A DNA stretch of 64,000 nucleotides from an uncultured Pseudomonadales bacterium (GTDB taxonomy: Bacteria > Patescibacteriota > Microgenomatia > UBA1400 > UBA1396): positions 184,547-248,546 of the forward strand of contig CAZRWP010000001.1 in NCBI GenBank assembly GCA_964603945.1, written 5' to 3'. Every line of letters begins with the position of its first letter. Positions within the stretch are counted from its first letter, which is position 1. A program made the translations under genes and the position numbers. This document shows, one piece after another, positions 9,453 to 64,000 of the stretch. The notes under the pieces are model-generated. The model worked only from the letters and a program-made list of their open reading frames with translations, made no database searches and was not told the DNA's origin.

Positions 9453-10058
9453 TTAAATCTCTCTTCTTCCATCCAGCGCCCGAGCCAGGGTCACATTGTC
9501 CGCGTACTCAATGTCAGCGCCGATTGGCAGACCGTGCCCAATCCGAGTCACCTTGATATCTTCTTGGCTGTGGCCGGCGTCGCGAATAAGTTTCTCAATA
9601 TATAAAGCAGTGGCTTCGCCTTCCATGGTGGGGTTGGTCGCCAGAATCACTTCCTCAACTGAACCCAACCTCTGCAAAATATCCCGCAGATACAGCTGGT
9701 CTGGACCGATATTCTCCAAGGGACTAATAACGCCATGTAAAACGTGGTAAACGCCTTTGTAAGTGTCGGTTTGCTCAATCGCCAAAACGTCCAAAGGATT
9801 TTCCACCACGCAAAGCTTGGTCGTATCGCGCCGTGGATCGGCACAGACAAAGCAGGGAGACTCTTCGTCAATATTGTGACAAATTTCGCAAAATTTGGTG
9901 TTAGCTTTGAGCTGAGTCAGTGACTGGGCAAAATCCTCAATTACGTGATCCGGCACATGCAGAAGATAGAACGCCAGGCGCTGGGCAGATTTTGGCCCTA
10001 TACCGGGCAATTTCTCAAACTGTTCCACTACAGATCGTACCGGTCGAGGAAGTTTCAT
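9453..10058 (-). CDS. recR: recombination protein RecR
   Basis: N-terminal HhH (LPGIGPKSAQRLAFYLL), C4 zinc finger (CEICHNIDEESPCFVCAD), Toprim region; dnaX-ybaB-recR synteny. Confidence 0.9.
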   Translation of the reverse strand: MKLPRPVRSVVEQFEKLPGIGPKSAQRLAFYLLHVPDHVIEDFAQSLTQLKANTKFCEICHNIDEESPCFVCADPRRDTTKLCVVENPLDVLAIEQTDTYKGVYHVLHGVISPLENIGPDQLYLRDILQRLGSVEEVILATNPTMEGEATALYIEKLIRDAGHSQEDIKVTRIGHGLPIGADIEYADNVTLARALDGRREI

Positions 10059-10587: not shown

Positions 10588-10680
10588 AGAAGGATCATCC
10601 TTGCCCTTAGTTTCCTCAAGAAGGATCATCCTAGGATGATCCTTCCAGGCAAGCGGATGGGCAAGGATGATCCTTCCAGG
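10588..10680. repeat. ~90-bp nested palindromic intergenic repeat element, copy 1 (inverted orientation relative to copies 2 and 3)
   Basis: Four copies of 12-mer GAAGGATCATCC in alternating orientation with central perfect palindrome GGATCATCCTAGGATGATCC; near-identical to 13102-13190 and 61848-61935. Confidence 0.85.
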
Positions 10681-13101: not shown

Positions 13102-13190
13102 GAAGGATCATCCTTGCCCCTCCGCTTGCCTGGAAGGATCATCCTAGGATGATCCTTCTTGAGGAAACTACGGGCAAGGATGATCCTTTC
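13102..13190. repeat. ~90-bp nested palindromic intergenic repeat element, copy 2
   Basis: Same element as 10588-10680 and 61848-61935. Confidence 0.85.
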
Positions 13191-44828: not shown

Positions 44829-45030
44829 AACAACCTCATTATAGGCATTTCATATTTTGAATTTATTTTTATGAGTTGCCAATTCACGGGCGGGATTCGC
44901 ACTGCTGAGGCGTGAACGCCTCGCAGTATTAACCAGGTGCGCCTACGGCGTGCACCAGGTAGCAAACCAGACAGGCTCTTATCATTACCCGATTCATATT
45001 GTTAAATCTGCGATGCAGATTTAATAATAT

Positions 45031-45106
45031 GAGCCACGGGCGGGATTCGAACCCGCGAATCCGAGGTTTTGCAGACCTGGCCGTTAGACCGCTTCGGTAC
45101 CGTGGC
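45031..45106 (-). tRNA. tRNA-Cys (anticodon GCA), CCA not encoded; irregular anticodon stem (bulge/mismatch)
   Basis: Minus-strand read GCCACGG..CCGTGGC acceptor (7 bp), T-arm GCGGG-TTCGAAT-CCCGC, anticodon loop CUGCAAA, 3-bp D-stem and U73 discriminator typical of tRNA-Cys. Confidence 0.7.
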
Positions 45107-45322
45107 AAAAAAGCTTGTTTGCGTGGCTGGATTATAACGGAGTTTTACCTTAAAAAGAAATTAGAAAGCGGTGTTAAACTGAAAGGAAACTTTTTGACGG
45201 GTGACATTTTCCAGAAACTCGGTACAGTCATGACTATTAGCATTTTTCTTCTCGCCATCGTCACCTTGCTTTTCCTGATTTACTTCAAACTAGATAATAA
45301 AAAGTAGTGATTAAATTTACGG

Positions 45323-46549
45323 CTATTTCTGCTTTAAAATATTGCTCTCAATACTGGCGAATAAGCTAGCGCGCTGGGAGTGGTGCGTTTGAGCAATTTC
45401 TACCAGTCGATCAATTAGATTTTCATAGGGTAAACCGCTAGCTTCCCAAAGATAATAAGCCATTGAGCCAGGCGGAGAATTCACCTCTCCGACCCAAAAT
45501 TCTTCCGTACTGGGATTGGCGAAGAAATCAATTCGGGCAACGCCAAAACCATCTATGAGCTTCCAGATAAAGCAGGCGGCGTCCTGCAGGGCAGACTGCA
45601 AATCAGGCGAAATTGGAGCCGGAATGCGACGCAACAAACCCGCCATGCCTTGACTGCCTTTGCCTCCGGATTCATCTGCATTGTCTAAATCACCCGATTT
45701 ACTCTTGCCAATGCCGCGTTCATATTTGTCGGCGTAACTTAGAAATTCGTCCAATTGGATTGGCTGTTCGCTGATCGAGGCCTCACAATCATCAGCTGTG
45801 CCCAGCACCGCAATATTAACCTCAATGGCATCTGGAGGAGCCGCCTCTTCAACCACGATCCGGGTATCAAATTGCGCGGCCGAAGCTACGGCGCCGGCCA
45901 GTTTGTCAGGCGTAGTAATCCTGGTAATGCCGACACTGGAACCCAAACTAGCTGGTTTTACAAATAATGGATACTCTAAGTGGCTGATGTGGTGCTCGAC
46001 TTCTGCCTGGCCTTTCTCCCAATCAGCAGTAGTAAACCAACCGTAGTTAGTAACATTCAGTCCGGCCGCTTCCATAACTTGCTTGGTGATTATCTTATCG
46101 ATGCCGACGGCCGCGGCGACCACCCCTGGCCCCACGTAGGGAATGTTTAGCAGTTCAAATAAGCCAGCCAGCGTACCGTCCTCGCCGCGGCCGCCATGCA
46201 CACAAAAAATCGCAGTGTCAATTAAAGAGTGAAGCTGTAGAGCGTCAGATTGACCAGGCGAGACTTGTTTAGACAGGGCTTGTTCGGACAGGGCTTGAGC
46301 AGGATAAGGTGTGGCCGTGACCAACTGACGATCTTCACCAGCCGGATCTTGCAGATCTAAATTCTGAAAAGTTTTAATATTTGTTAAGGACTCACCAGTC
46401 CACCAGCGCCCTTGCTTATCGATATATAGTGGTACAACTTGATATTGATTGCTGACGCGATTCATTAGCTGAGTTGCCGTAATAATTGACACCTCATGCT
46501 CGACTGATTGAGAGCCAAAAACGACTCCGATTTTAGTAGGTTTAGCCAT
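45323..46549 (-). CDS. ddl: D-alanine--D-alanine ligase (ATG at 46549; ORF-track start 46582 is TTG)
   Basis: N-terminus MAKPTKIGVVFGSQSVEHEVSI…, ATP-grasp motifs; longer than typical due to internal insertions. Confidence 0.8.
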   Translation of the reverse strand: MAKPTKIGVVFGSQSVEHEVSIITATQLMNRVSNQYQVVPLYIDKQGRWWTGESLTNIKTFQNLDLQDPAGEDRQLVTATPYPAQALSEQALSKQVSPGQSDALQLHSLIDTAIFCVHGGRGEDGTLAGLFELLNIPYVGPGVVAAAVGIDKIITKQVMEAAGLNVTNYGWFTTADWEKGQAEVEHHISHLEYPLFVKPASLGSSVGITRITTPDKLAGAVASAAQFDTRIVVEEAAPPDAIEVNIAVLGTADDCEASISEQPIQLDEFLSYADKYERGIGKSKSGDLDNADESGGKGSQGMAGLLRRIPAPISPDLQSALQDAACFIWKLIDGFGVARIDFFANPSTEEFWVGEVNSPPGSMAYYLWEASGLPYENLIDRLVEIAQTHHSQRASLFASIESNILKQK

Positions 46550-46600
46550 GTGGATAAAGTATAGCAGAGGGTGATGCTTCAAAAAGGATCAACAATTGTA

Positions 46601-46700
46601 AGCCTCACTTACACTGAGTGCACCTCAAGGAAGCCTCACCCAGGTGAGGCTTCCTTGAGGAAGAGTGCGTGTAAGTAAGGCTTACAATTGCCAATTCCAA
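46601..46700. repeat. 100-bp nested perfect palindrome (outer ~20-bp stem CAATTGTAAGCCTCACTTACAC / GTGTAAGTAAGGCTTACAATTG; inner 18-bp stem CCTCAAGGAAGCCTCACC-CAG-GTGAGGCTTCCTTGAGG) at left boundary of GC-rich island
   Basis: Read directly; followed by two ~33-bp imperfect direct repeats at 46728-46797. Confidence 0.8.
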
Positions 46701-46814
46701 TCTTCCAGGTAGAAGATCTTTGATTGAGTCAGCTACGAGTGGTTTCTGGAAATCCTGTTTGACCGCGTCAGCCACGAACGGTTCCTGCAACTCCTGAGTG
46801 ACCCCCAAACCCAG

Positions 46815-47207
46815 GTGCACGCGCTGGAAGAATCCCATAACAACTACGGCGAATATCTGTTTGTGACACTCAGCCGTCCGAGCGGCAAGCAGCGTGTGTT
46901 TCTGACTTTTTACGGCCTGGGGTACCACGAGTATCGCGAGCGCTGGGTCTATGAGGACTGGTACTGGTACGAATCAGTGCGGGGCGCGGGTATGGAGCAT
47001 CGGCGCGTGCCGCGCAACGCCGCCAGACAGCAGATTGACGAGCGGTACCGGGAGTGCCAGGCAAGCGCTGACCGCGATACCCAGACCAACCGGGGACGCA
47101 TCTTCGAGCTCCTGGCCGACCTGACAGATGAAGACGGCGCCTACACGGAGATGGAAGACTTGCCTTATTGGTTGCTGGATGACGATGAGGAAGGCGACGT
47201 GAGATAA
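46815..47207 (+). CDS. hypothetical acidic protein (130 aa, GTG start), island-encoded
   Basis: ORF in GC-rich segment; competing antisense ORF 46870-47562 judged artefactual. Confidence 0.35.
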   Translation: MHALEESHNNYGEYLFVTLSRPSGKQRVFLTFYGLGYHEYRERWVYEDWYWYESVRGAGMEHRRVPRNAARQQIDERYRECQASADRDTQTNRGRIFELLADLTDEDGAYTEMEDLPYWLLDDDEEGDVR

Positions 47208-47209
47208 GT

Positions 47210-47629
47210 ATGAGCAAGGAAGACACGCCGCTCCAGATGGATATGTTCTCCGGGAAGCTGGTGGACAACCGGACGCGCCAGCAAAAGCGGCAAGACAAGA
47301 CGCGGGAGCAGCCCAAGCAAATCGAGATGTTTTCCCAGCGGGAGATTGCCCAGTTTGGGGTCAATCCAAATCCACTCATGCCGCTCTCACCCAACACCAA
47401 GCTGCTGCTGATTCCCGAAGACCCGCGCACCGAGGAGGAAATCGAGCAGGACAGGCAGCAAGAGGCCGAAAAACGGACGGCGCGGATGTTTGCTGAGCCG
47501 CCGCCCGCACAGGAGACCAAGTCACCGGAGACTATTAATGCCAAACTCGTGCCGGACACCACCGCGCTCGCCCTTGTGCCCAGGGGCGTTGTCGCGGTCG
47601 TCGTTTACGGCTTTTTCTCGCAGATTTAG
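47210..47629 (+). CDS. hypothetical disordered protein (139 aa), island-encoded
   Basis: ATG 3 nt after previous stop; Q/E/R/K-rich. Confidence 0.35.
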   Translation: MSKEDTPLQMDMFSGKLVDNRTRQQKRQDKTREQPKQIEMFSQREIAQFGVNPNPLMPLSPNTKLLLIPEDPRTEEEIEQDRQQEAEKRTARMFAEPPPAQETKSPETINAKLVPDTTALALVPRGVVAVVVYGFFSQI

Positions 47630-47720
47630 CCGTTATAATGGCCTTAGCGTGCTTGCTCCACTACCGGTCATCAGCGTTTCTCATCGAAACCGAAGGTACA
47701 GACTCCCACAAAGCTGGACA

Positions 47721-50700
47721 ATGAACCGGCGGGGCAAGTACGCCAGATTGCCGCTTCTCATTGGCGCGTTACTCCTTCTGACGCTCATTCCGTTTGCTCT
47801 CTTTCGCGGCTCCCAAGCTCCGGAAGCGGAAGCGGCGTGGTGGGACAACTCCTGGCGCTATCGCAAACCCATCCAGGTCACCAACAACACGACTCAGCAA
47901 ACCAACGTCTACATCACCCTCACTCTAGACACCTCAGATACCACCAAGTTCCAGGACGATTGCGGTGACCTGCGCTTCACCAAGCAAAATGGGCAAGTGT
48001 TGCCGTACTACATCGCTAGTGGCTGCGGTACAGCGTCCACTAGCGTACATGTTCAGCTTGATACGTTCCCGGCTGGAGCGCAGACGCTTTATGCCTACTA
48101 CGGGAATCCGTCAGCGCCAAATGGATTTGCTAATAACGACTTCCTGATGGAAGCCACCAACTACACCGTAGGTGGAACCGGAAGTGAGGAAATCGCTCCT
48201 GGTCCAGTTGCTTACTGGAAGTTTGATGAGGGAAGCGGGAGTACCGCGCATGATTCGGCGGGGAGTAATAACGGTAACATCAACGGCGCAACGTGGGTGA
48301 GTGAAGATCAATGTATAGATGGCAAGTGCTTAAATTTTGATGGATTGGACGACTCTGTATCGGCAACCAATCCTTCAAACTTTTGCACACTTCCTTCAAT
48401 AAGCTACGTTGCTTGGGTAAACAGCGACCTTGCTACCCAAAACAACTCTTCTGGAATCATCGTGAATCGACAGTTCAAGCTGACAGCGGGATCGGATTAT
48501 TCCTCTCGTATCTACCTTGAAGACGGTAGCGATGCCACTGTCTTAAAGCAAGTCTCAACGGGGATTCCACTCAATCAAAATGAATGGGATTTTGTGGCAA
48601 CCACTTTTGATCTCGCCGAGGGAAAAATCCACATCTATCTCAACGGCAACTTGATGGCATCAGAATCATTTGATTCCGCCGGACTGACTCTCAATGATGA
48701 TTACTGCACAGCATTGGTCTTGGGAAATGATTACGATAGTAGTAATCGTAAATTTGACGGATACCTTGACGAAGTCAAAATCTTCCCCTACGCCCTGACC
48801 GAAGATGAAATCAAAGCCGAGTACAACCTTGGGGCAGCCGCGGTGATCGGTACCGGGCCAGCGGCTCCGCCGCCATTGGGTGGCAACCTCGATGACTCGC
48901 TGGTGGCTCACTGGGCATTTGACGAACAATCAGGCCAGACCGCGCACGACAAGGTAGGCACCAATCACGGCACCTTGGGCGCGGACACCAATCCGGGGAG
49001 CGATGACCCGACCTGGAAGTCTGTGAGTGAGTGTAAGGTGAATGGGTGTTTGGGGTTTGATGGTACGAACAACTTTATCACCAACTCAAGTCCCGAGAAC
49101 TTGCCAACTGGATCTCAAGCCACTTGGACGTGGTGGTCAAAATCAAGTGCAACGGGATGGAGTGCAAACGCGCTTCTTGGAGACAATAGGTCTCTATGGT
49201 CGATTAGGCAATCGAGTAATTATCTTTATCTAGGGCTAGGAGGAGAAGAGTCTGGCGCAACAGCATCTTTCTCGACGGATGTTAACTGGAGTCATTATGC
49301 TATCACCTTTAATTCTGGTAGCGCTTCTTTCTTCAAGAATGGTGAGATGATCGGCAATTACAGCTTCGCCAACACAACAGTACCAGCGCTTAGCACTCTA
49401 TATGTTGGGAGACGATCGACTGTTGCAGCCCCTTATTTCTTTAACGGCCTCATCGACGAAGTCAAAATCTACAACACCGCCCTCACCCCTGAGCAAGTCC
49501 TCCAGGACATGAACGCCGGCGCCAGTCTCACGGTGGGCGTGGGCGCCGACGAGGCCGACGAGATCATCGACGGCGCGGGCGCTCCGCCGATTGCCGAGTG
49601 GAAGTTTGACGAGAACCAGGGCACGACCGCCTACGACACCAGCGGCAACGGTAACGACGGCACGGTTAATGGAGCGACCTGGAAATCGGGTTGTCAGCAG
49701 GGAGCGTGCTTGGAGTTTGATGGGAATAACCGTATATCTATATCAAATGATCCAATTCTATCCCCTAATCAAGTTACAGTAGGCGTATGGGCAAGACTAT
49801 CTCCTTCATTCAATAGTTGGGGTTATTTAGTTGCCAAAGAATGGGGTTATTCAGGATATGCACTTTATGTGGCTGCGGATAGAAGACCTGTATTCATAAC
49901 TAACGATGGTTCATCTCCGCAAAATATTAATTACGGAAGTACCAATTTGGAGAAAGGCAAATGGTACTATTTGGTTGGAACCTATGACGGAACCAAATCA
50001 ACGATCTACGTTGATGGAGTTTCTGAAAACGTTCAGAGTTTTGACATGGTTCAAAGCTCTTCGACGCTTTTCTTAGGTAATCATGGGGATAATACACGAG
50101 GTTTCAACGGCCAAATCGACCACATCAAAATCTACGACTACGCCCGCACGCCAGCTCAAATTGCCTACGACTACAATCGCGGTGCGCCCGTTGCTCACTG
50201 GAGGTTTGACGAGTGTGAAGGCACCGTCGCCCACGACTCATCTGGCAACGGCAATCACGGCACGATCAACATCGGCCCGTCTGGGAGCCAGAGTACGGCA
50301 GGAACGTGCCAGACTTCCGGCGCGTGGGCCAATGGGAAAGATGGGAAGTTTAATGGGAGCTTGAATTTTGATGGGACGGATGATGTGGTTAACCTTGGCA
50401 ATCCTTCGCGCATAGCAAACTTGAGCACCAATATTACTGCGGCTGTTTGGATTAAACCGACATCTGGCGGTGGAGTATTGTACCGAGGAGCAGGTTCAAA
50501 TTATAATTATTTATTGCAGATTGAGTCTAGCTCACAAATAAGACTAAGGCTTTGGGAAACATTGGGAGATGCTGGATCTGGCATCAATTATCTGGTGCCT
50601 GGACTTAACCTATTTAATTCATGGAATCACATAGCTTTTACTTATGACGGTAATAGTGTGAAAATTTTCGTTAATGCGGAATTGAAAAGCAACACACCCC

Positions 50701-50879
50701 GTTCCGCACCTATCGCAACTGGTGAAACTACCCAGCTGGGTGAATATCCAGGTGGAGGACCTCGCTATTTAACTGGCCAAATCGACGACGTGCGCATCTA
50801 CAACTACGCCCTGTCACCAGCCCAAATCTTGAAGGTCTATAACCAGGGCCAAGCCGTTAACTTCACCCGCGCGAACTGA
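47721..50879 (+). CDS. large membrane-anchored surface protein: N-terminal signal anchor, DUF2341-like domain, four LamG_3 (concanavalin A-like lectin) domains
   Basis: Start chosen at ATG 47721 (MNRRGKYARLPLLIGALLLLTLIPFALF); AWWDNSWRYRKPIQV…DCGDLRF motif (DUF2341-like); four repeats each beginning W(K/A/R)FDE..G.TA.D.SGNGN.GT.NGATW and ending DEV(K/R)I(F/Y).YAL(T/S)..(E/Q)I. Confidence 0.75.
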   Translation: MNRRGKYARLPLLIGALLLLTLIPFALFRGSQAPEAEAAWWDNSWRYRKPIQVTNNTTQQTNVYITLTLDTSDTTKFQDDCGDLRFTKQNGQVLPYYIASGCGTASTSVHVQLDTFPAGAQTLYAYYGNPSAPNGFANNDFLMEATNYTVGGTGSEEIAPGPVAYWKFDEGSGSTAHDSAGSNNGNINGATWVSEDQCIDGKCLNFDGLDDSVSATNPSNFCTLPSISYVAWVNSDLATQNNSSGIIVNRQFKLTAGSDYSSRIYLEDGSDATVLKQVSTGIPLNQNEWDFVATTFDLAEGKIHIYLNGNLMASESFDSAGLTLNDDYCTALVLGNDYDSSNRKFDGYLDEVKIFPYALTEDEIKAEYNLGAAAVIGTGPAAPPPLGGNLDDSLVAHWAFDEQSGQTAHDKVGTNHGTLGADTNPGSDDPTWKSVSECKVNGCLGFDGTNNFITNSSPENLPTGSQATWTWWSKSSATGWSANALLGDNRSLWSIRQSSNYLYLGLGGEESGATASFSTDVNWSHYAITFNSGSASFFKNGEMIGNYSFANTTVPALSTLYVGRRSTVAAPYFFNGLIDEVKIYNTALTPEQVLQDMNAGASLTVGVGADEADEIIDGAGAPPIAEWKFDENQGTTAYDTSGNGNDGTVNGATWKSGCQQGACLEFDGNNRISISNDPILSPNQVTVGVWARLSPSFNSWGYLVAKEWGYSGYALYVAADRRPVFITNDGSSPQNINYGSTNLEKGKWYYLVGTYDGTKSTIYVDGVSENVQSFDMVQSSSTLFLGNHGDNTRGFNGQIDHIKIYDYARTPAQIAYDYNRGAPVAHWRFDECEGTVAHDSSGNGNHGTINIGPSGSQSTAGTCQTSGAWANGKDGKFNGSLNFDGTDDVVNLGNPSRIANLSTNITAAVWIKPTSGGGVLYRGAGSNYNYLLQIESSSQIRLRLWETLGDAGSGINYLVPGLNLFNSWNHIAFTYDGNSVKIFVNAELKSNTPRSAPIATGETTQLGEYPGGGPRYLTGQIDDVRIYNYALSPAQILKVYNQGQAVNFTRAN

Positions 50880-50898
50880 GTTCCGCTCCTTTCCTCGT

Positions 50899-51282
50899 AT
50901 GAGATCGCTACAAATGGCTCTTGAACCATCGCGCAGACATCTGCTACTGTCATCCTTGCCCGTGCGCAAGGAGTGGAAACAACGTCCGGCGCCCATCACT
51001 TTTGAGCAAGTCACACGTCTTGCTCAGGAATCGCTGTTGCGCCAGGGCTCCCACCCACCGACCCTGATCGTTGATGGTTTCAAAAACCCCATTGTTATCC
51101 AAATGGATAGGCTTGCGCCTACGTATGAGGCAAGACTGCAACAGATGTACTTTACTGGTCAGGCGCTATCCCACGAAGGAACTGCCGGTCGGGTGCGATC
51201 CGTCTACTTCGTCACAGAAGCGTGGCTGAGCCAGGCGCGGGAGGGAAAATTGTCTGGTATGCGACCCTCGCAAGACCCGTAG
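50899..51282 (+). CDS. hypothetical protein (127 aa), island-encoded
   Basis: ORF with ATG; no motifs. Confidence 0.35.
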   Translation: MRSLQMALEPSRRHLLLSSLPVRKEWKQRPAPITFEQVTRLAQESLLRQGSHPPTLIVDGFKNPIVIQMDRLAPTYEARLQQMYFTGQALSHEGTAGRVRSVYFVTEAWLSQAREGKLSGMRPSQDP

Positions 51283-51297
51283 CGCAAAGAGGTCCTG

Positions 51298-51495
51298 ATG
51301 GTCAATGGACTGGATCGGTTAATCGGTAAGTCACGCCGAGTCCATCTGGCGATTTTCGAAATGGTGCGTGACGAGCAAGGCACTTTGCGGGAGATTCGCG
51401 ACTATACCTTTCCGGATGATCCGGAGTTGGTTGCCGACACGCCGCTGCTGGAAGCGTTTTTGACCGGGTTTTGGACAAAAGGCGGGTTGCGGTAA
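51298..51495 (+). CDS. hypothetical small protein (65 aa), island-encoded
   Basis: ORF only. Confidence 0.25.
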   Translation: MVNGLDRLIGKSRRVHLAIFEMVRDEQGTLREIRDYTFPDDPELVADTPLLEAFLTGFWTKGGLR

Positions 51496-51547
51496 TCGAG
51501 GGAAAACAGTAAGGATCGTGGTGATTTTGCGATTTTCATAGCCGTAG

Positions 51548-51814
51548 CTAGCGGGTGTCTTTTCGTTTCTTCTGCTTCGCTTTATTGCTTGCCGGTTCAG
51601 TGCGCACTATTAGATCAAGGGTAGCAATTCCCAAAACTGCGGCCAGCCTGTCGAGAGTGTCGAGATCTGGACGGACGACTGGTTCAGTTTTTAGACGGTG
51701 TAAAGTGCTTAATGAAATACCCGCTTTCTTGGCTAGTTCAGTGTAAGTTAGCCGGCGTTGATTCTCGACTTCCCATCTAAATATGTGTTTGTCAATATCC
51801 AGCCAATACGGCAT
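51548..51814 (-). CDS. XRE-family helix-turn-helix transcriptional regulator (88 aa)
   Basis: HTH segment LTYTELAKKAGISLSTLHRLKT typical of XRE/Cro-C1. Confidence 0.7.
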   Translation of the reverse strand: MPYWLDIDKHIFRWEVENQRRLTYTELAKKAGISLSTLHRLKTEPVVRPDLDTLDRLAAVLGIATLDLIVRTEPASNKAKQKKRKDTR

Positions 51815-51874
51815 ATAGCTCCTTGGTTTTTCTACTTGTTTTGTAATATTTCTTTGAAATTATATCAAACCAGG

Positions 51875-52504
51875 TCATAGGTTCAACCGCTTCACCACCT
51901 CCTCAAGCTCATCGTCGGTAACTCCCAAGTACCGCTTGGTGTACGCTAGGCTGGCGTGGTTGAGCTTGTACATGATGAGCGCCAGATCCACCCCACTCAT
52001 GCGGGCGTGATAGCCCCAGGTCTTGCGTAAACTGTGTGTGCCGAAGTTGCCACGCAAGCCAATATCCGCGCAGATTCTGGTAATAAACTTCCAGGCTTGC
52101 CCGCGCTTGATTGGCTCGCGAAAGTTGTTCACCCTGACGTTGAAAAAGACGTAGTTGTCCGGATCGCTCGCAACAGCCGGATAGGCAACCAGATACTCGC
52201 CGAGTGCCTCCCGAATGCTGTCGTTAATGACAACCTCCTGCCTCTTGCCCCGCTTCTCTTCATTGATAGCAAAGCGGCGGCGGATAAGGCCCCGTTCATC
52301 TAAGAAGTGATGAATGCGCAGATTGAGTAAGTCCGAAATGCGCAGCGCGGAGTTGATCCCTACGGTAAACAGCAGCAGGTCGCGGTAACGACCTTGTCCG
52401 CGCAGTTGGTTCTTAATCTGCGCGATGCGCTTGCGGTCGCGGATGGGTTCAACAAAGTTCATATTTTCTTCGGGTGTTTGTGTGGCGTGGTTTGTAGTGA
52501 ACAC
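51875..52504 (-). CDS. small tyrosine site-specific recombinase/integrase (catalytic domain only, ~196-209 aa; ATG at 52462, upstream GTG at 52504)
   Basis: Catalytic residues R (NSALRISDL), HxxR (THSLRKTW), C-terminal Tyr region (LAYTKRYLG). Confidence 0.75.
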   Translation of the reverse strand: MFTTNHATQTPEENMNFVEPIRDRKRIAQIKNQLRGQGRYRDLLLFTVGINSALRISDLLNLRIHHFLDERGLIRRRFAINEEKRGKRQEVVINDSIREALGEYLVAYPAVASDPDNYVFFNVRVNNFREPIKRGQAWKFITRICADIGLRGNFGTHSLRKTWGYHARMSGVDLALIMYKLNHASLAYTKRYLGVTDDELEEVVKRLNL

Positions 52505-61847: not shown

Positions 61848-61935
61848 GAAGGATCATCCTTGCCCCACCTCTTGCCTGGAAGGATCATCCTAGGATGATC
61901 CTTCTTGAGGAAACTGCGGGCAAGGATGATCCTTC
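61848..61935. repeat. ~90-bp nested palindromic intergenic repeat element, copy 3
   Basis: Same element as 10588-10680 and 13102-13190. Confidence 0.85.
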
Positions 61936-61950
61936 ATTTTGCACCACGAA

Positions 61951-61979
61951 AAAGCCCCCGACTAGCGAGGGCTTTTTAG
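61951..61979. terminator. bidirectional rho-independent terminator (AAAGCCCCCG…GAGGGCTTTTT) between murJ and pilin array
   Basis: GC stem followed by T5 on + strand and A-run on − strand. Confidence 0.65.
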
Positions 61980-61993
61980 ATTCTAAATTTAGG

Positions 61994-62386
61994 TTAGCGC
62001 TCGAGACCGATACCGCCAGCCACTTCTTCAAGATTAATACCGAAGAATTGGAGAATCAGGTTGAAGATAGCCCATGAGGCAATCACAATCAGCAAACCAA
62101 TTAAGGCAGAAGTAATCTTGTTGCGGGCACTTTCGGTTTTACCCTTATCGCCACCTGAGGTCAGCCATTGGAAGCCACCCAGAATTAGATAAAGCAAAAC
62201 AGCCAGAGCGGAAAGCAAGATAGCACCATTAATTAATGAGGCAATTAAGCCAGCCATTGTTAAGTTGCCACCAGCCTGAATTTCGTCTGGATCTGGCAGA
62301 ATGTCATAAGTTTGGGCTCGAACTTCGCCAACTGCCAAAGACAGTGCCGTGACAGCTGAGGCTAAACCAACAGTCAATTTTTTCAT
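61994..62386 (-). CDS. T4SS-pilin-like (TrbC/VirB2-like, CPR-type) protein, paralog 1, with Sec signal peptide
   Basis: Signal peptide MKKLTVGLASAVTALSLAVGEVRAQ; two TM helices flanking conserved WLTSGGDKGKTESARNKI motif. Confidence 0.65.
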   Translation of the reverse strand: MKKLTVGLASAVTALSLAVGEVRAQTYDILPDPDEIQAGGNLTMAGLIASLINGAILLSALAVLLYLILGGFQWLTSGGDKGKTESARNKITSALIGLLIVIASWAIFNLILQFFGINLEEVAGGIGLER

Positions 62387-62473
62387 TATTAGCTCCTTTT
62401 CTTTTTTCCTTCACTATTATATCATTTTTGCCCAGGCAGAGTTGAATTGCAAGCGGTATTCCATTTCCTCAGT

Positions 62474-63037
62474 TTAACAACTGCTAAAATCATACTGAGG
62501 CAGTTCTTCTCCAGATATACATTCACAAGGCTCCCAGTGGTTATAATTAAACCCTGAAACCCCTTCGCCTGGTCCAAAGCATTTCATTTTTGCCGCCCCG
62601 CCATTGGAGCAATAACCTCCACGGCCGCCATCAGATCCAGTCTGATAAGGTGTGCAAACCGCACCACCGCCCCCACTTCCGCTGCCACCGCTGCCTCCAC
62701 CACCTCCGCTGCTGCCCTGGCCCAAGTTTACATCCAGTAAATTCAGCACAAAGGTGTACAGGGTATAAATAAAGACTAAGATCACAAAGCCAATCAAGGC
62801 TTGAACAATTTTATTTCGAGCGGACTCGAGTTTTCCCTTGTCGCCGCCGGAAGTTATCCAGTTAATCGCACCCAGAATTAGGTATACGAGTAAAATCAGA
62901 GCCCCGACTAGAATTGCCCCTTCAATCAACGTGATAATCAGCTGAGTCATGCTGGAACCAGCTAAGCTTTCACCTTGAGGTATATTTTCCAAGTTGCCCT
63001 GGATATCAATTGTTGTTGTTCCTTGAAGTAACCACAT
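62474..63037 (-). CDS. T4SS-pilin-like protein, paralog 2, with Gly-rich linker and 6-Cys C-terminal module
   Basis: WITSGGDKGKLESARNKI motif; C-terminus GGGGGSGGSGSGGGG…C..C..C..CEC…C. Confidence 0.65.
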   Translation of the reverse strand: MWLLQGTTTIDIQGNLENIPQGESLAGSSMTQLIITLIEGAILVGALILLVYLILGAINWITSGGDKGKLESARNKIVQALIGFVILVFIYTLYTFVLNLLDVNLGQGSSGGGGGSGGSGSGGGGAVCTPYQTGSDGGRGGYCSNGGAAKMKCFGPGEGVSGFNYNHWEPCECISGEELPQYDFSSC

Positions 63038-63052
63038 AGTTATCTTTTCTCA

Positions 63053-63559
63053 TTAATTCCAAAATTCTTCTGCTTCTTTAATTTTCTGTTGTTGCTGCTT
63101 AATTTTTTCCTCTGCGTCCTTTTCTGCATTCTTTTGAGCATTCTTCATAAATTGAGAATACCAACTTGGCTTGCCGGTGCTTGATTCTTCACTTAACTGA
63201 TTAATAAACTCGACCTTCAGCAGATCAATTCCAAACAAAGTTGGCCCAATCCATTGCAAGATGGTTACGGAGAATACTAGTAAAGCAAAGCCAATAAAAG
63301 CCTGAATTATGCGTTGCTGGGCTTTTTCGATTTTACCCTTGTCGCCGCCAGCAGTAATCCAGTTGATCGCGCCCAGAATAAAATAGATTAGTACCGCTAA
63401 GCCACCTAAGGCAACAGCTGAGGTTATGGCAATCGCAATGTATTTGCCTAAGATTTCAGCACCGACTTGGCCACTATCACCATTGGCCTCCGGCAGACCT
63501 TTAACGGCCGGATTCGTCAACCCTGGCTGACTGACTGCTTGAGCAATTAGATTAAGCAT
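63053..63559 (-). CDS. T4SS-pilin-like protein, paralog 3, with charged coiled-coil C-terminus
   Basis: WITAGGDKGKIEKAQQRI motif between two TM helices. Confidence 0.65.
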   Translation of the reverse strand: MLNLIAQAVSQPGLTNPAVKGLPEANGDSGQVGAEILGKYIAIAITSAVALGGLAVLIYFILGAINWITAGGDKGKIEKAQQRIIQAFIGFALLVFSVTILQWIGPTLFGIDLLKVEFINQLSEESSTGKPSWYSQFMKNAQKNAEKDAEEKIKQQQQKIKEAEEFWN

Positions 63560-63560
63560 A

Positions 63561-63953
63561 TTAATTTGCCCCTCGGTTACTTAAAATTTCCAGGAATGGC
63601 TCAGCAGGATTTAACAGCTCAATGCCAAACACGCCGCCTACAATTCCGACAATACCAATCGTCACGATCATGATCAGCAAACCAATGGCCGCGTTGATCA
63701 TGCGGTTTTGGGCTTTTTCCACGCCACCCTTGTCCGTACCAGCACGTAGCCAGTCAAATGCGGCAATAAGAAAGTAAATCACAAAAAAGAGACCACCTAG
63801 GACGGTTAAAAAACCGATAATCAAAGATATTTCAGAGGTTAAAAGGGCAACGGCATTTTCTTCTGACTCGGCGTAAAGTTCAGTCTGCTGACCAATCACG
63901 CCAGCGCCTTTGATTGGGCCTTCGCCTAACTGTAATTCTTCAGCTATCAACAT
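63561..63953 (-). CDS. T4SS-pilin-like protein, paralog 4
   Basis: WLRAGTDKGGVEKAQNRM motif between two TM helices; 1-nt spacing to paralog 3. Confidence 0.6.
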   Translation of the reverse strand: MLIAEELQLGEGPIKGAGVIGQQTELYAESEENAVALLTSEISLIIGFLTVLGGLFFVIYFLIAAFDWLRAGTDKGGVEKAQNRMINAAIGLLIMIVTIGIVGIVGGVFGIELLNPAEPFLEILSNRGAN

Positions 63954-64000
63954 ATTTAATTCCCCGGTCCTACAATGGTTGGTCGCAGTAAGGACATAGT

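Follow-up and report, generated by a model that had tools for sequence, protein, structure and literature searches.

A tandem array of six divergent PF18895 pilin-like genes beside a T4SS locus of a Patescibacterium, with a predicted six-cysteine head on one pilin

Four small adjacent genes at the end of a 64,000-nucleotide stretch of DNA (the window) raise the question of why a bacterium keeps several divergent copies of one pilin-like protein. An original prediction, made from the DNA letters, took them for T4SS pilins that might act as interchangeable tips or as major and minor subunits of a filament. Arrays of this kind are already published, and this locus leaves the general picture unchanged. 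Patescibacteria carry 441 arrays of 2-11 VirB2-like pilins near virB4, mostly without a relaxase; identity within arrays averages 25% and reaches at most 54%, and Microgenomatia are among the richest lineages (Quinonero-Coronel et al. 2025, PMC12102498). Six pilins are essential in Ca. Southlakia epibionticum ML1 (Wang et al. 2023, PMC10633639), as is the pilin series with its T4SS (PMC10633639, PMC12857230); in the only species tested, epibiotic growth requires the Patescibacterial T4SS. Host interaction or exchange is the role proposed for this essential Saccharibacterial system. The function of Patescibacterial T4SSs has been called 'completely unknown' (PMC11665869), and the wording for their pilus is no stronger than 'potential to elaborate' (PMC12857230).

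The array and its protein family

The four genes (paralogs 1 to 4, Table 1) lie side by side on the minus strand, and open reading frames and hydropathy confirmed the prediction that each encodes a protein with two hydrophobic segments. They share 28-46% identity around a W-(I/L)-x-(S/A)-G-(G/T)-D-K-G core, and their N- and C-terminal regions differ. The longer consensus given for this core in the original prediction held overall, except in paralog 3, where Q replaces the N of the pattern (AQQRI). The array had also been suspected to run past the window edge, and it does. An exact-sequence look-up with paralog 4 led to a Logan contig (L001) that is 99.9% identical to the window over 2115 shared bases; the same look-up with paralog 2 gave no match, and the Logan copy of paralog 2 differs by one residue (F184Y). 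A gene for a 121-aa pilin at 9633-9998 of this contig maps to window position 63956 onwards, and the part of the array beyond the window, together with the T4SS operon, occupies contig positions 1-9953. The contig adds two pilin genes to the four in the window, giving six in total. They are separated by gaps of 1-87 nt (1-15 nt between the tightly coupled genes), and best-hit identity within the array is 30-47%.

Table 1. Positions of the pilin genes and associated features in the window
Feature	Position	Strand	Description
Terminator-like hairpin	61949-61977	minus	Just downstream of paralog 1; 12-bp stem, 3' arm ends in U-run, GGGGGCUUUUU
Paralog 1	61994-62386	minus	130 aa; sixth and last pilin gene
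Shine-Dalgarno AAGGAG, strong	62393-62398	minus	6 nt upstream of paralog 1 ATG; from sequence
Extended -10 promoter-like element	62416-62424	minus	TGATATAAT; inside the 87-nt gap from paralog 2 to paralog 1
Paralog 2	62474-63037	minus	187 aa; fifth pilin gene; hairpin, Gly/Ser linker and six-Cys head
Paralog 2 six-Cys head	62477-62662	minus	Residues 126-187; Cys 128, 143, 153, 171, 173, 187
Paralog 2 Gly/Ser-rich flexible linker	62663-62722	minus	Residues 106-125; pLDDT < 50
Paralog 2 hairpin core	62723-62953	minus	Residues 29-105, with WITSGGDKGKLESARNK loop; alignment, hydropathy, AlphaFold
Paralog 3	63053-63559	minus	168 aa; fourth pilin gene; K/E/Q-rich tail
Paralog 3 K/E/Q-rich tail	63056-63223		Residues 113-168
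Paralog 4	63561-63953	minus	130 aa; third pilin gene; acidic N-region
Second pilin gene, 3' end	63956-64000	minus	14 codons and stop; 121-aa product; cut by window edge

All six genes matched the T4SS pilin family PF18895 (T4SS_pilin), as had been expected for the four in the window, and four of them scored above the gathering score of 26.6 bits. These were paralogs 1 and 3 (29.5 and 27.3 bits) and the two genes beyond the window edge (27.4 bits, and 27.9 bits for the 121-aa gene). Paralog 2 fell just under the gathering score (25.5 bits, E = 1.4e-5) and paralog 4 further under it (20.6 bits, E = 4.9e-4). We accepted both as family members because they share 28-46% identity with paralog 1 and because homologs of paralog 2 carry precomputed PF18895 assignments. 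Considering that all six match the same Pfam model and that all six are under purifying selection (see below), the array is not a product of chance.

The relationship to classical conjugative pilins is looser. All 24 relatives match PF18895 (E < 0.01), and five of them also match the TrbC/VirB2 model PF04956 (best E = 4.6e-6). None of the six array genes reached the PF04956 gathering score of 27.9 bits, the best being the 121-aa gene (17.2 bits, E = 0.0058); at the level of sequence, this indicates a distant relationship rather than membership. A profile of 24 family members searched against the whole set of PDB sequences returned no pilin match and no link to solved conjugative pilins, and a fold comparison did not discriminate as to whether the proteins polymerise into an extracellular, lipid-binding pilus. 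For five of the six genes, the best NCBIfam match was NF045849 (Mbov_0395), at 17-33 bits against a cut-off of 40.

Hydropathy and charge analysis placed two hydrophobic segments in each pilin around a loop with 3-4 K/R residues, flanked by acidic termini. AlphaFold predicted a helical hairpin, with helices at residues 29-62 and 67-100 in paralog 2. These analyses agree on the two-TM-helix hairpin around a short conserved loop that characterises PF18895. Five of the six pilins have no signal peptide, and we assume that their N-regions of 28-45 residues are exported. Export of the N-terminus is suggested by distant homologs, which have a signal peptide before the same conserved N-region. Each pilin would then be a membrane-inserted two-helix hairpin with its conserved K/R-rich loop in the cytoplasm and both termini outside.

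The closest known systems share this design in part. VirB2 of the Agrobacterium T-pilus, TrbC of RP4 and TraA of F likewise have about 70-100 mature residues, two hydrophobic helices, a short basic loop and a VirB4 neighbour, and weak HMM cross-matches link them to the five relatives mentioned above. The array departs from them in its sub-threshold PF04956 scores, its single signal peptide among six genes, its monoderm host and its six paralogs in place of one. Mbov_0395 and MMCAP2_0565 of Mycoplasma ICEs (NF045849) are also small two-TM proteins whose genes neighbour that of a VirB4-like ATPase, in hosts that are wall-less or monoderm, but each is a single gene in a mobile conjugative element, whereas the array has six genes that score below the family cut-off. 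The archaeal Ced/Ted conjugation-like pili (Aeropyrum pernix pilin, PDB 8dfu) are a further close system.

Secretion genes, the last pilin gene and the case for a filament

Inspection of the flanks revealed secretion machinery beside the array, as the original prediction had anticipated. The extension contig carries an operon, divergent from the array, that encodes a Gram-positive-type VirB4 ATPase together with TrsD-like and PrgI/VirB3-like proteins. The VirB4 gene lies about 7 kb from the array and scored 396.2 bits with NF045971 (CD1110-family; cut-off 325) and 91 bits with PF19044. The PrgI protein scored 39.1 bits with PF12666 (cut-off 27) and is fused to a CarboxypepD_reg domain. The TrsD assignment appears weaker than these two, as the protein reached just 29.3 bits with NF041427 (cut-off 200); PF26593 (TraC-like) is precomputed for it. 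A Gram-positive-type VirB4 with PrgI/VirB3-like and TrsD-like proteins beside it is the composition of MPF-FATA-type systems, and at least two tandem pilins of low identity near virB4 is how arrays are defined in PMC12102498. The locus also encodes proteins of 218 and 1374 aa, which matched no Pfam or NCBIfam model above noise and no sequence in PDB. The larger one, with a single TM segment and a C-terminal HELGH motif, might act as a hydrolase; an ADAMTS-like match at this site (E = 0.33) was too weak to count. No VirB6 (PrgH)-, VirB8 (PrgL)- or VirB1-like proteins were recognised by HMMs in the locus.

NUDIX and mevalonate-pathway genes border the locus on one side and MurJ, GH18 and PBP1a on the other. 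Neither a coupling protein (VirD4/T4CP) nor a relaxase was found in the locus or its flanks. We rejected a mobile conjugative element, since a relaxase, a coupling protein and an integrase are all lacking nearby and the flanks are core genes. As the locus lacks both a relaxase and a coupling protein, we take host interaction or exchange, not conjugation, to be the most likely role of the system. Published Patescibacterial arrays have the same features: tandem divergent PF18895 pilins (2-11 published, six here) of low identity (28-47% here), encoded on the chromosome beside a virB4 of monoderm type and homologs of TrsD and PrgI/VirB3, in a locus that lacks a relaxase and a coupling protein.

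Small two-TM proteins encoded in tandem, and likewise a Gly-rich segment with a Cys-rich peptide after it, superficially resemble bacteriocin loci. The array might on this likeness encode bacteriocin, immunity or holin-like membrane peptides, with the tail of paralog 2 released as a disulfide-rich toxin or peptide, and weak sub-threshold Pfam matches to holin and other two-TM families point the same way. However, those matches are single and weaker, while matches to PF18895 and TrbC are consistent, and the linkage of the pilins to the VirB4, TrsD-like and PrgI-like genes is kept in five relatives. The locus also lacks a peptidase-ABC exporter and processing-site motifs, and the Cys module never occurs without the pilin core in full-length matches. 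We give a cluster unrelated to secretion hardly any credence and rejected it, as family matches and T4SS linkage speak against it.

The last gene of the array differs from the others. Paralog 1 had been predicted to have a Sec signal, and an extra N-terminal hydrophobic segment (residues 4-22) is indeed found in this paralog only. It is the sole array member with a Sec-type signal peptide (residues 1-24, MKKLTVGLASAVTALSLAVGEVRA/Q, ending VRA/Q). All 12 same-position orthologs in related loci have a signal peptide, 11 of them with an A-x-A/Q-like end, and pN/pS of paralog 1 is 0. The gap before this gene is also distinctive: 11 of the 12 related loci have a gap of 64-117 nt at the same place, other array gaps being mostly shorter than 20 nt. 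Most of these long gaps contain a TGnTATAAT or TTGAC(T/G)...TATAAT element, and AAGGAG-type sites recur in several of the orthologous gaps. We infer that TGATATAAT is an internal promoter for paralog 1; the automated promoter scan did not list the element, which was seen by reading the sequence and is backed by its conservation in related loci. The hairpin just after paralog 1, similarly not listed by the automated terminator scan, was also read from the sequence and is backed by folding (centroid -16.5 kcal/mol, z = -2.06 against shuffles). This intrinsic terminator-like structure marks the putative end of the pilin operon.

Considering its signal peptide, its conserved promoter-like element and its ribosome-binding site, the strongest of the array, we propose paralog 1 as a candidate for the major, abundant subunit. 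Upstream of it, five translationally coupled genes would encode low-copy specialised subunits with distinct, non-redundant roles, for example in priming, at the base or at the tip. This proposed division into major and minor pilins rests on the promoter-like and ribosome-binding-site motifs. Our preferred explanation, which we consider probable, is that the window contains genes 3-6 of a six-gene PF18895 pilin operon belonging to a compact chromosomal MPF-FATA-like T4SS of a Microgenomatia-type (Woesebacteria-like) Patescibacterium, and that the products form a filament with major and specialised subunits. If VirB2/TraA and archaeal Ced pili are a guide, the hairpins would be pulled from the membrane by the VirB4 machine and stacked into a filament or conduit, with the loop lining the lumen and the termini on the surface.

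Alternatively, the pilin-like proteins could stay in the membrane as channel parts or as anchors for surface passenger domains, with no extended pilus. Their best NCBIfam match, Mbov_0395, is a 'pilin-like conjugal transfer protein' of Mycoplasma ICEs, whose hosts, to our knowledge, are not known for conjugative pili. Larger proteins in related loci (n=31, 316-1248 aa) end in the pilin hairpin at the very C-terminus, as if it anchored a large extracellular passenger in the membrane. Pili are generally absent from Gram-positive MPF-FATA systems (PMC12102498, PMC10633639), and no filament of this T4SS type has been observed in any Patescibacterium (PMC12857230). Against this, six different conserved hairpin proteins exceed any obvious need of a channel, and the cross-matches of five relatives to the classical TrbC/VirB2 model point to pilins. 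The basic loop and exposed termini are the topology of polymerising conjugative pilins, and a separately promoted, signal-peptide-bearing last gene suits an abundant structural subunit. We therefore consider retention in the membrane rather unlikely and prefer the filament.

Orthology and selection across related loci

We compared the array with related loci, whose arrays typically have 6-12 genes. Each paralog had a perfect and reciprocal positional ortholog across 11 of these loci. In the five closest, identity was 47-82% between orthologs and 30-47% between paralogs; the duplications must therefore be old, with every copy retained since. Strain variants gave pN/pS values of 0-0.11 in every paralog, pointing to strong purifying selection. 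Paralog 4, with same-position orthologs of 47-65% identity in L007-L011, had a pN/pS of 0 over 4-11 synonymous differences. For paralog 3, pN/pS was 0.03-0.11. The charged C-terminus predicted for paralog 3, a putative coiled coil, is present as its K/E/Q-rich tail, which is absent or unrelated in positional orthologs and cut in strains L003 and L004, where the protein has 158 and 160 aa. Synonymous divergence was uneven between neighbouring genes, which suggests recombination among strains.

VirB2 paralogs of Bartonella and Anaplasma have been read as interchangeable variants. The paralogs described here could likewise be alternatives for the tip or the major subunit that allow antigenic variation or adaptation to different host strains. 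Low identity within the array (28-47%), terminal regions that are unlike between paralogs and the uneven synonymous divergence would fit such a role, and speculation along these lines has been published for Patescibacteria (PMC12102498). However, perfect positional orthology and strong purifying selection disfavour interchangeable or antigenically varying copies, and low pN/pS throughout leaves no sign of diversifying selection. In addition, conservation of the paralog 2 head matches or exceeds that of its pilin core, and gaps of 1-15 nt between the tightly coupled genes imply co-expression, not alternative expression. We thus hold interchangeable variants to be quite improbable and rejected antigenic-variation cassettes, against which positional orthology and purifying selection speak.

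As judged from gene sequences, these comparisons show that the six paralogs form a fixed, ordered set. The 'major and minor subunits' of the original prediction fit this result; its 'interchangeable tips' conflict with positional orthology, purifying selection and the conserved Cys module. The six copies behave like fixed parts of a heteromeric assembly, not like a variation cassette, and the locus argues against the published idea of variation for host range. A fixed set of parts also alters which experiments are worthwhile: knocking down any one pilin should prove lethal or cause a defect, and all six should be recovered together by co-purification.

The six-cysteine head of paralog 2

The C-terminal half of paralog 2 has the predicted arrangement of a Gly linker followed by a six-Cys segment. 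AlphaFold left the linker disordered (residues 105-125) and modelled the C-terminal domain with confidence, giving the 62-residue head a pLDDT of 94.5. This head matched nothing in Pfam, among PDB sequences or among PDB folds. A knot-like module had been predicted, but a knottin fold with knotted connectivity was not found in the head. With knottins (inhibitor cystine-knot) and other small disulfide-rich domains it shares a length of about 60 residues, six conserved Cys, a beta-rich fold and a predicted extracellular location.

About 18 full-length homologs of paralog 2 share 37-98% identity with it. All 20 aligned sequences have exactly six Cys; five fall in columns that are invariant or nearly so, and the position of the remaining one shifts. 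The linker, of variable length, is the least conserved region (49.7% mean identity). The module occurred in only 22 clusters among 1.84 billion representatives and was always fused to a pilin in full-length matches. On the structural model and this conservation, the six-Cys module is a genuine domain. Attached to a T4SS pilin by a flexible linker, it is a conserved and previously undescribed arrangement. In the published array descriptions (PMC12102498, PMC10633639), we found none of a pilin with a conserved Cys-rich globular head, none of a separately promoted, signal-peptide-bearing last gene and none of strict positional orthology with purifying selection.

The head would be displayed outside the cell on its linker of about 20 residues and stabilised by disulfides. 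Its conservation, which equals or exceeds that of the pilin core, makes a conserved ligand probable, either an invariant component of the host envelope or a partner in the machine, rather than a variable receptor. Disulfides, ligand and a function as an adhesin are all speculative. The predicted extracellular head is a candidate contact point with the host or with another part of the machine. Expressing it and raising binders to it should be straightforward, and it could be a tag for locating the filament by microscopy. If the pilins stayed in the membrane, the head would sit on the cell surface beside the secretion pore.

A bolder version of the filament explanation is possible but doubtful. 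It holds that in an ultra-small monoderm bacterium six different pilins, as a fixed and ordered set, make up a VirB2-type filament, that one subunit carries a new disulfide-rich fold on a tether as a host-contact module, and that PF18895 hairpins are a modular scaffold. We know of no natural VirB2, TrbC or TraA with a fused globular domain.

The six pilins would then parallel other pilus classes, whose major and minor subunits are likewise ordered. Passengers would be placed on either exposed terminus of such a scaffold, with Cys-rich heads at the C-terminus and, in related loci, domains of 300-1200 residues at the N-terminus.

The pilin array and its secretion neighbours

Four minus-strand ORFs at the end of the window lie exactly where the original prediction had placed T4SS-pilin-like paralogs. 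They are 28-46% identical in alignment and share an invariant W..G.DKG..E.A core; the fuller consensus proposed earlier holds at all positions but one, where paralog 3 has Q for N. Hydropathy and charge analysis revealed two hydrophobic segments in each paralog around a loop with 3-4 Lys/Arg, and net-acidic N- and C-regions. Only paralog 1 of the four carries a third hydrophobic segment, at its N-terminus, with VRA↓Q after it; this is a Sec-type signal peptide. The C-terminus of paralog 2 consists of a Gly/Ser run and then a segment with six cysteines (residues 128, 143, 153, 171, 173 and 187), and that of paralog 3 is a K/E/Q-rich tail.

An exact-sequence look-up with paralog 4 retrieved several metagenome contigs. 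The longest of them, L001, shares 2115 bases with the window at 99.9% identity, runs ~10 kb beyond its edge and adds two pilin genes, of 118/119 and 121 aa; the window's final 45 bases form the tail of the 121-aa one. The array, suspected to continue past the edge, therefore has six genes, spaced by 1, 2, 1, 15 and 87 nt. The Pfam T4SS_pilin model PF18895 matched all six, four of them above the gathering score of 26.6 bits (29.5, 27.3, 27.4 and 27.9) and paralogs 2 and 4 just under it (25.5 and 20.6 bits). None of the six reached the threshold of the classical TrbC/VirB2 model, PF04956. Since five of 24 family members scanned matched PF04956 (best E = 4.6e-6), and all 24 PF18895, there is a distant sequence bridge to conjugative pilins.

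A divergent operon lies opposite the array on L001, across a 56-bp intergenic region. Its VirB4 matched the Gram-positive CD1110 family (396 bits against a cut-off of 325) and its PrgI-family protein exceeded the PrgI Pfam threshold, while the TrsD assignment is less firm. Both pilin-model matches and adjacent secretion machinery, on which the original prediction depended, are thus present. No coupling protein or relaxase was found at the locus or its flanks, and no VirB6, VirB8 or VirB1 was recognisable at the locus. The 1374-aa protein, which has orthologs in the related loci L008-L010, had no significant match in Pfam, NCBIfam or PDB. It combines a long acidic N-terminal part, a single predicted TM near residue 1160 and a C-terminal HELGH zincin-like motif, and could supply the missing cell-wall hydrolase or a VirB6-like role. 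The PrgI/VirB3-like protein carries a ~200-residue low-complexity linker before its CarboxypepD_reg (prealbumin-like) domain, an unusual extracellular appendage for a VirB3-type protein that is conserved in L008-L011 orthologs. Beyond VirB4, close relatives (VirB4 89% and 83% identical) encode enzymes of the mevalonate pathway and a NUDIX hydrolase. On its window side, the array is flanked by MurJ, a ribosomal protein S20-sized gene, a GH18 gene and PBP1a; housekeeping genes make up the remainder of the window.

Coordinates of the array, its neighbours and other features (window positions unless a contig or related locus is named)
Feature	Location	Strand	Description
Paralog 1	61994-62386	minus	ORF, 130 aa
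Extended -10	62416-62424		TGATATAAT, perfect; in 87-nt gap before paralog 1
Paralog 2	62474-63037	minus	ORF, 187 aa
Paralog 3	63053-63559	minus	ORF, 168 aa
Paralog 4	63561-63953	minus	ORF, 130 aa
Divergent operon	L001 5094-9218	minus	1374-aa protein, just past window edge
Divergent operon	L001		218-aa protein
Divergent operon	L001 3202-4431	minus	409-aa PrgI-family (VirB3-like) protein with CarboxypepD_reg domain
Divergent operon	L001		325-aa TrsD/TraC-like protein
Divergent operon	L001		VirB4 ATPase
Large hairpin-ended proteins	L078 2478-6224; L039 11454-14198; L081 11487-14294; L015 2217-3743		examples
Other Cys-rich heads	L074 10357-11139; L057 6941-7414; L069 9059-9667; L075 7214-7861; L060 1827-2426		
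~86-bp element	10590-10675; 13103-13188; 61849-61934		three intergenic copies
Candidate island	45031-45106		tRNA-Cys
Candidate island	47490-50879		1129-aa protein, four Laminin_G_3/ConA-like lectin domains and DUF2341
Candidate island	51875-52504		phage-integrase-family gene

Gene order and selection

Eleven related loci provided arrays for comparison with the six pilins. In every locus, the best match of every paralog was the gene at the same position, and reciprocally so. Positional orthologs in L007-L011, the five closest loci, share 47-82% identity, against 30-47% between paralogs within the array. Larger arrays, of 8-9 genes, keep the order, with positions 2 and 6 additionally duplicated. 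Each paralog has a pN/pS of 0-0.11 when strains 94-97% identical in DNA are compared. The duplications are therefore old, with every copy retained and none showing diversifying selection, which argues against the proposal of interchangeable tips. From these comparisons we read the six paralogs as a fixed parts list and not a variation cassette. Otherwise, the original observation is confirmed and its interpretation supported.

Synonymous divergence among strains (L001 against L003, L004 and L006; window 61994-64000 and beyond) is highly uneven by gene. In L003 it is 0.013, 0.151, 0.042, 0.207, 0.194 and 0.020 for pilins 1-6, and L004 has a different pattern. This suggests inter-strain homologous recombination with breakpoints within the array.

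Taken by itself, the array is a typical case of a system published recently and is not new in kind. Quinonero-Coronel et al., applying PF18895 and PF04956 to 3,035 Patescibacterial genomes, found 441 arrays of 2-11 VirB2-like pilin genes, notably in Microgenomatia and Saccharimonadia, with a mean within-array identity of 25% (PMC12102498). These adjoin a monoderm-type VirB4 with TrsD, PrgI and VirB6 homologs, usually without a relaxase (PMC12102498). Antigenic variation or adaptation to different hosts has been the published speculation on the paralogs. In Southlakia epibionticum, the pilin series and T4SS are essential (Wang et al., PMC10633639); a 2025 review counts six sequence-divergent pilins there and treats a pilus only as a possibility (PMC12857230). 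As far as the literature searched goes, three refinements are undescribed: the pilin with a Cys head, the positional orthology that stays fixed, and the signal-peptide pilin with its own putative promoter.

Head domains and the last pilin

The six-Cys module of paralog 2 is a real, rare and conserved domain. It is common to about 18 full-length homologs (37-98% identity). Five of its Cys are invariant or nearly invariant in position, as are several Gly, Pro, Tyr and His residues, and the first Cys moves by a few alignment columns. The Cys count is exactly six in each of the 20 aligned sequences, and every one of these Cys is in the tail. In the AlphaFold model of paralog 2, the hairpin is followed by a linker predicted as disordered (pLDDT <50) and then by a small, beta-rich domain of high confidence; modelled by itself, this domain reached pLDDT 94.5 and pTM 0.77. 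Across 1.84 billion cluster representatives searched exhaustively with a profile, the module occurred in only 22 proteins; every full-length one has it at the C-terminus, joined to a pilin core through a Gly-rich linker. Where genomes have it, it occurs exactly once per array at a fixed place, fifth of six or sixth of nine. Conservation of the module equals or exceeds that of the membrane core (65.8% against 61.4% mean identity; 63-69% against 30-39% in distant homologs). The charged tail of paralog 3, by contrast, is missing or unrelated in positional orthologs and truncated in two strains.

Long tails are uncommon in the wider family. In 591 pilin-like ORFs from 81 loci, the C-terminal extension has a median length of 11 residues. 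Tails of at least 60 residues occur in only 22, and 20 of these tails are Cys-rich (4-11 Cys), some unrelated in sequence. In other arrays, a single pilin carries a Cys-rich C-terminal head of another kind (4-11 Cys), often after a poly-Gly linker, and this head is not matched by the paralog 2 module HMM. Several unrelated head domains thus seem to have been recruited to the same position. In or beside pilin arrays, 31 larger proteins (316-1248 aa) have a pilin-like hairpin as their very C-terminal end, as if large N-terminal passengers were anchored by, or polymerised through, the pilin module. Given these proteins and the Cys-rich tails, passenger domains occur on either terminus, which fits a topology with both termini outside.

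The last gene, paralog 1, is set apart from the others by its 87-nt gap with a perfect extended -10. It also has the strongest Shine-Dalgarno of the array (AAGGAG) and a 12-bp hairpin with a U-run on its 3' side. The matching gap is 64-117 nt in 11 of 12 related loci, and most of these gaps contain a TGnTATAAT or TTGAC(T/G)...TATAAT element. The pilin after it has a signal peptide in all 12, ending A-x-A↓Q in 11. Paralog 1 is thus a candidate abundant major subunit, and the five tightly coupled upstream genes may encode low-copy subunits.

Proposed assembly, lineages and other elements

The positive-inside rule and the signal peptides would place the pilin loop inside and both termini outside; the N-region is probably exported, since homologs place a signal peptide ahead of the same region. 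VirB2/TraA and archaeal Ced pili provide the basis for a filament analogy. By this analogy, the VirB4 machine would extract the pilins, which would stack helically, their basic loops facing the lumen and their termini exposed on the surface. In the main rival reading, the pilins never leave the membrane, where they would serve as parts of a channel or as anchors at the surface. In its favour, the literature reports no filament in any Patescibacterium, the hairpin fold is generic and the best NCBIfam relative comes from Mycoplasma ICEs; we nevertheless consider it the less likely of the two. In the filament we favour, the paralog 2 head would be held outside on a ~20-residue flexible tether. 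Because the head is conserved and not variable, its partner is more likely a conserved ligand than a receptor specific to a strain. That the locus lacks both a relaxase and a coupling protein points away from conjugation.

Eighty related loci from named genomes belong to Patescibacteria of the Microgenomatia type (Woesebacteria, Pacebacteria, Gottesmanbacteria, Blackburnbacteria). Many MAG records with such loci (including L007, L008 and L010-L012) are titled 'uncultured Pseudomonadales bacterium' or 'Gammaproteobacteria'. Considering isolate names such as HK-STAS-PATE-16, these titles look like taxonomic mislabels in public records.

Two other elements were found in the window. Each copy of an ~86-bp intergenic element contains four near-palindromic AAGGATSATCCTT motifs with start-to-start spacing fixed at 31, 11 and 31 nt (12 matches in the window, with 0.07 expected). 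On the third copy, murJ and paralog 1 converge from either side. Either a REP/MITE-like repeat or an array of regulator-binding sites could account for the element. The region ~45000-52500, where GC rises from about 0.45 to 0.50-0.54, is a possible integrated island.
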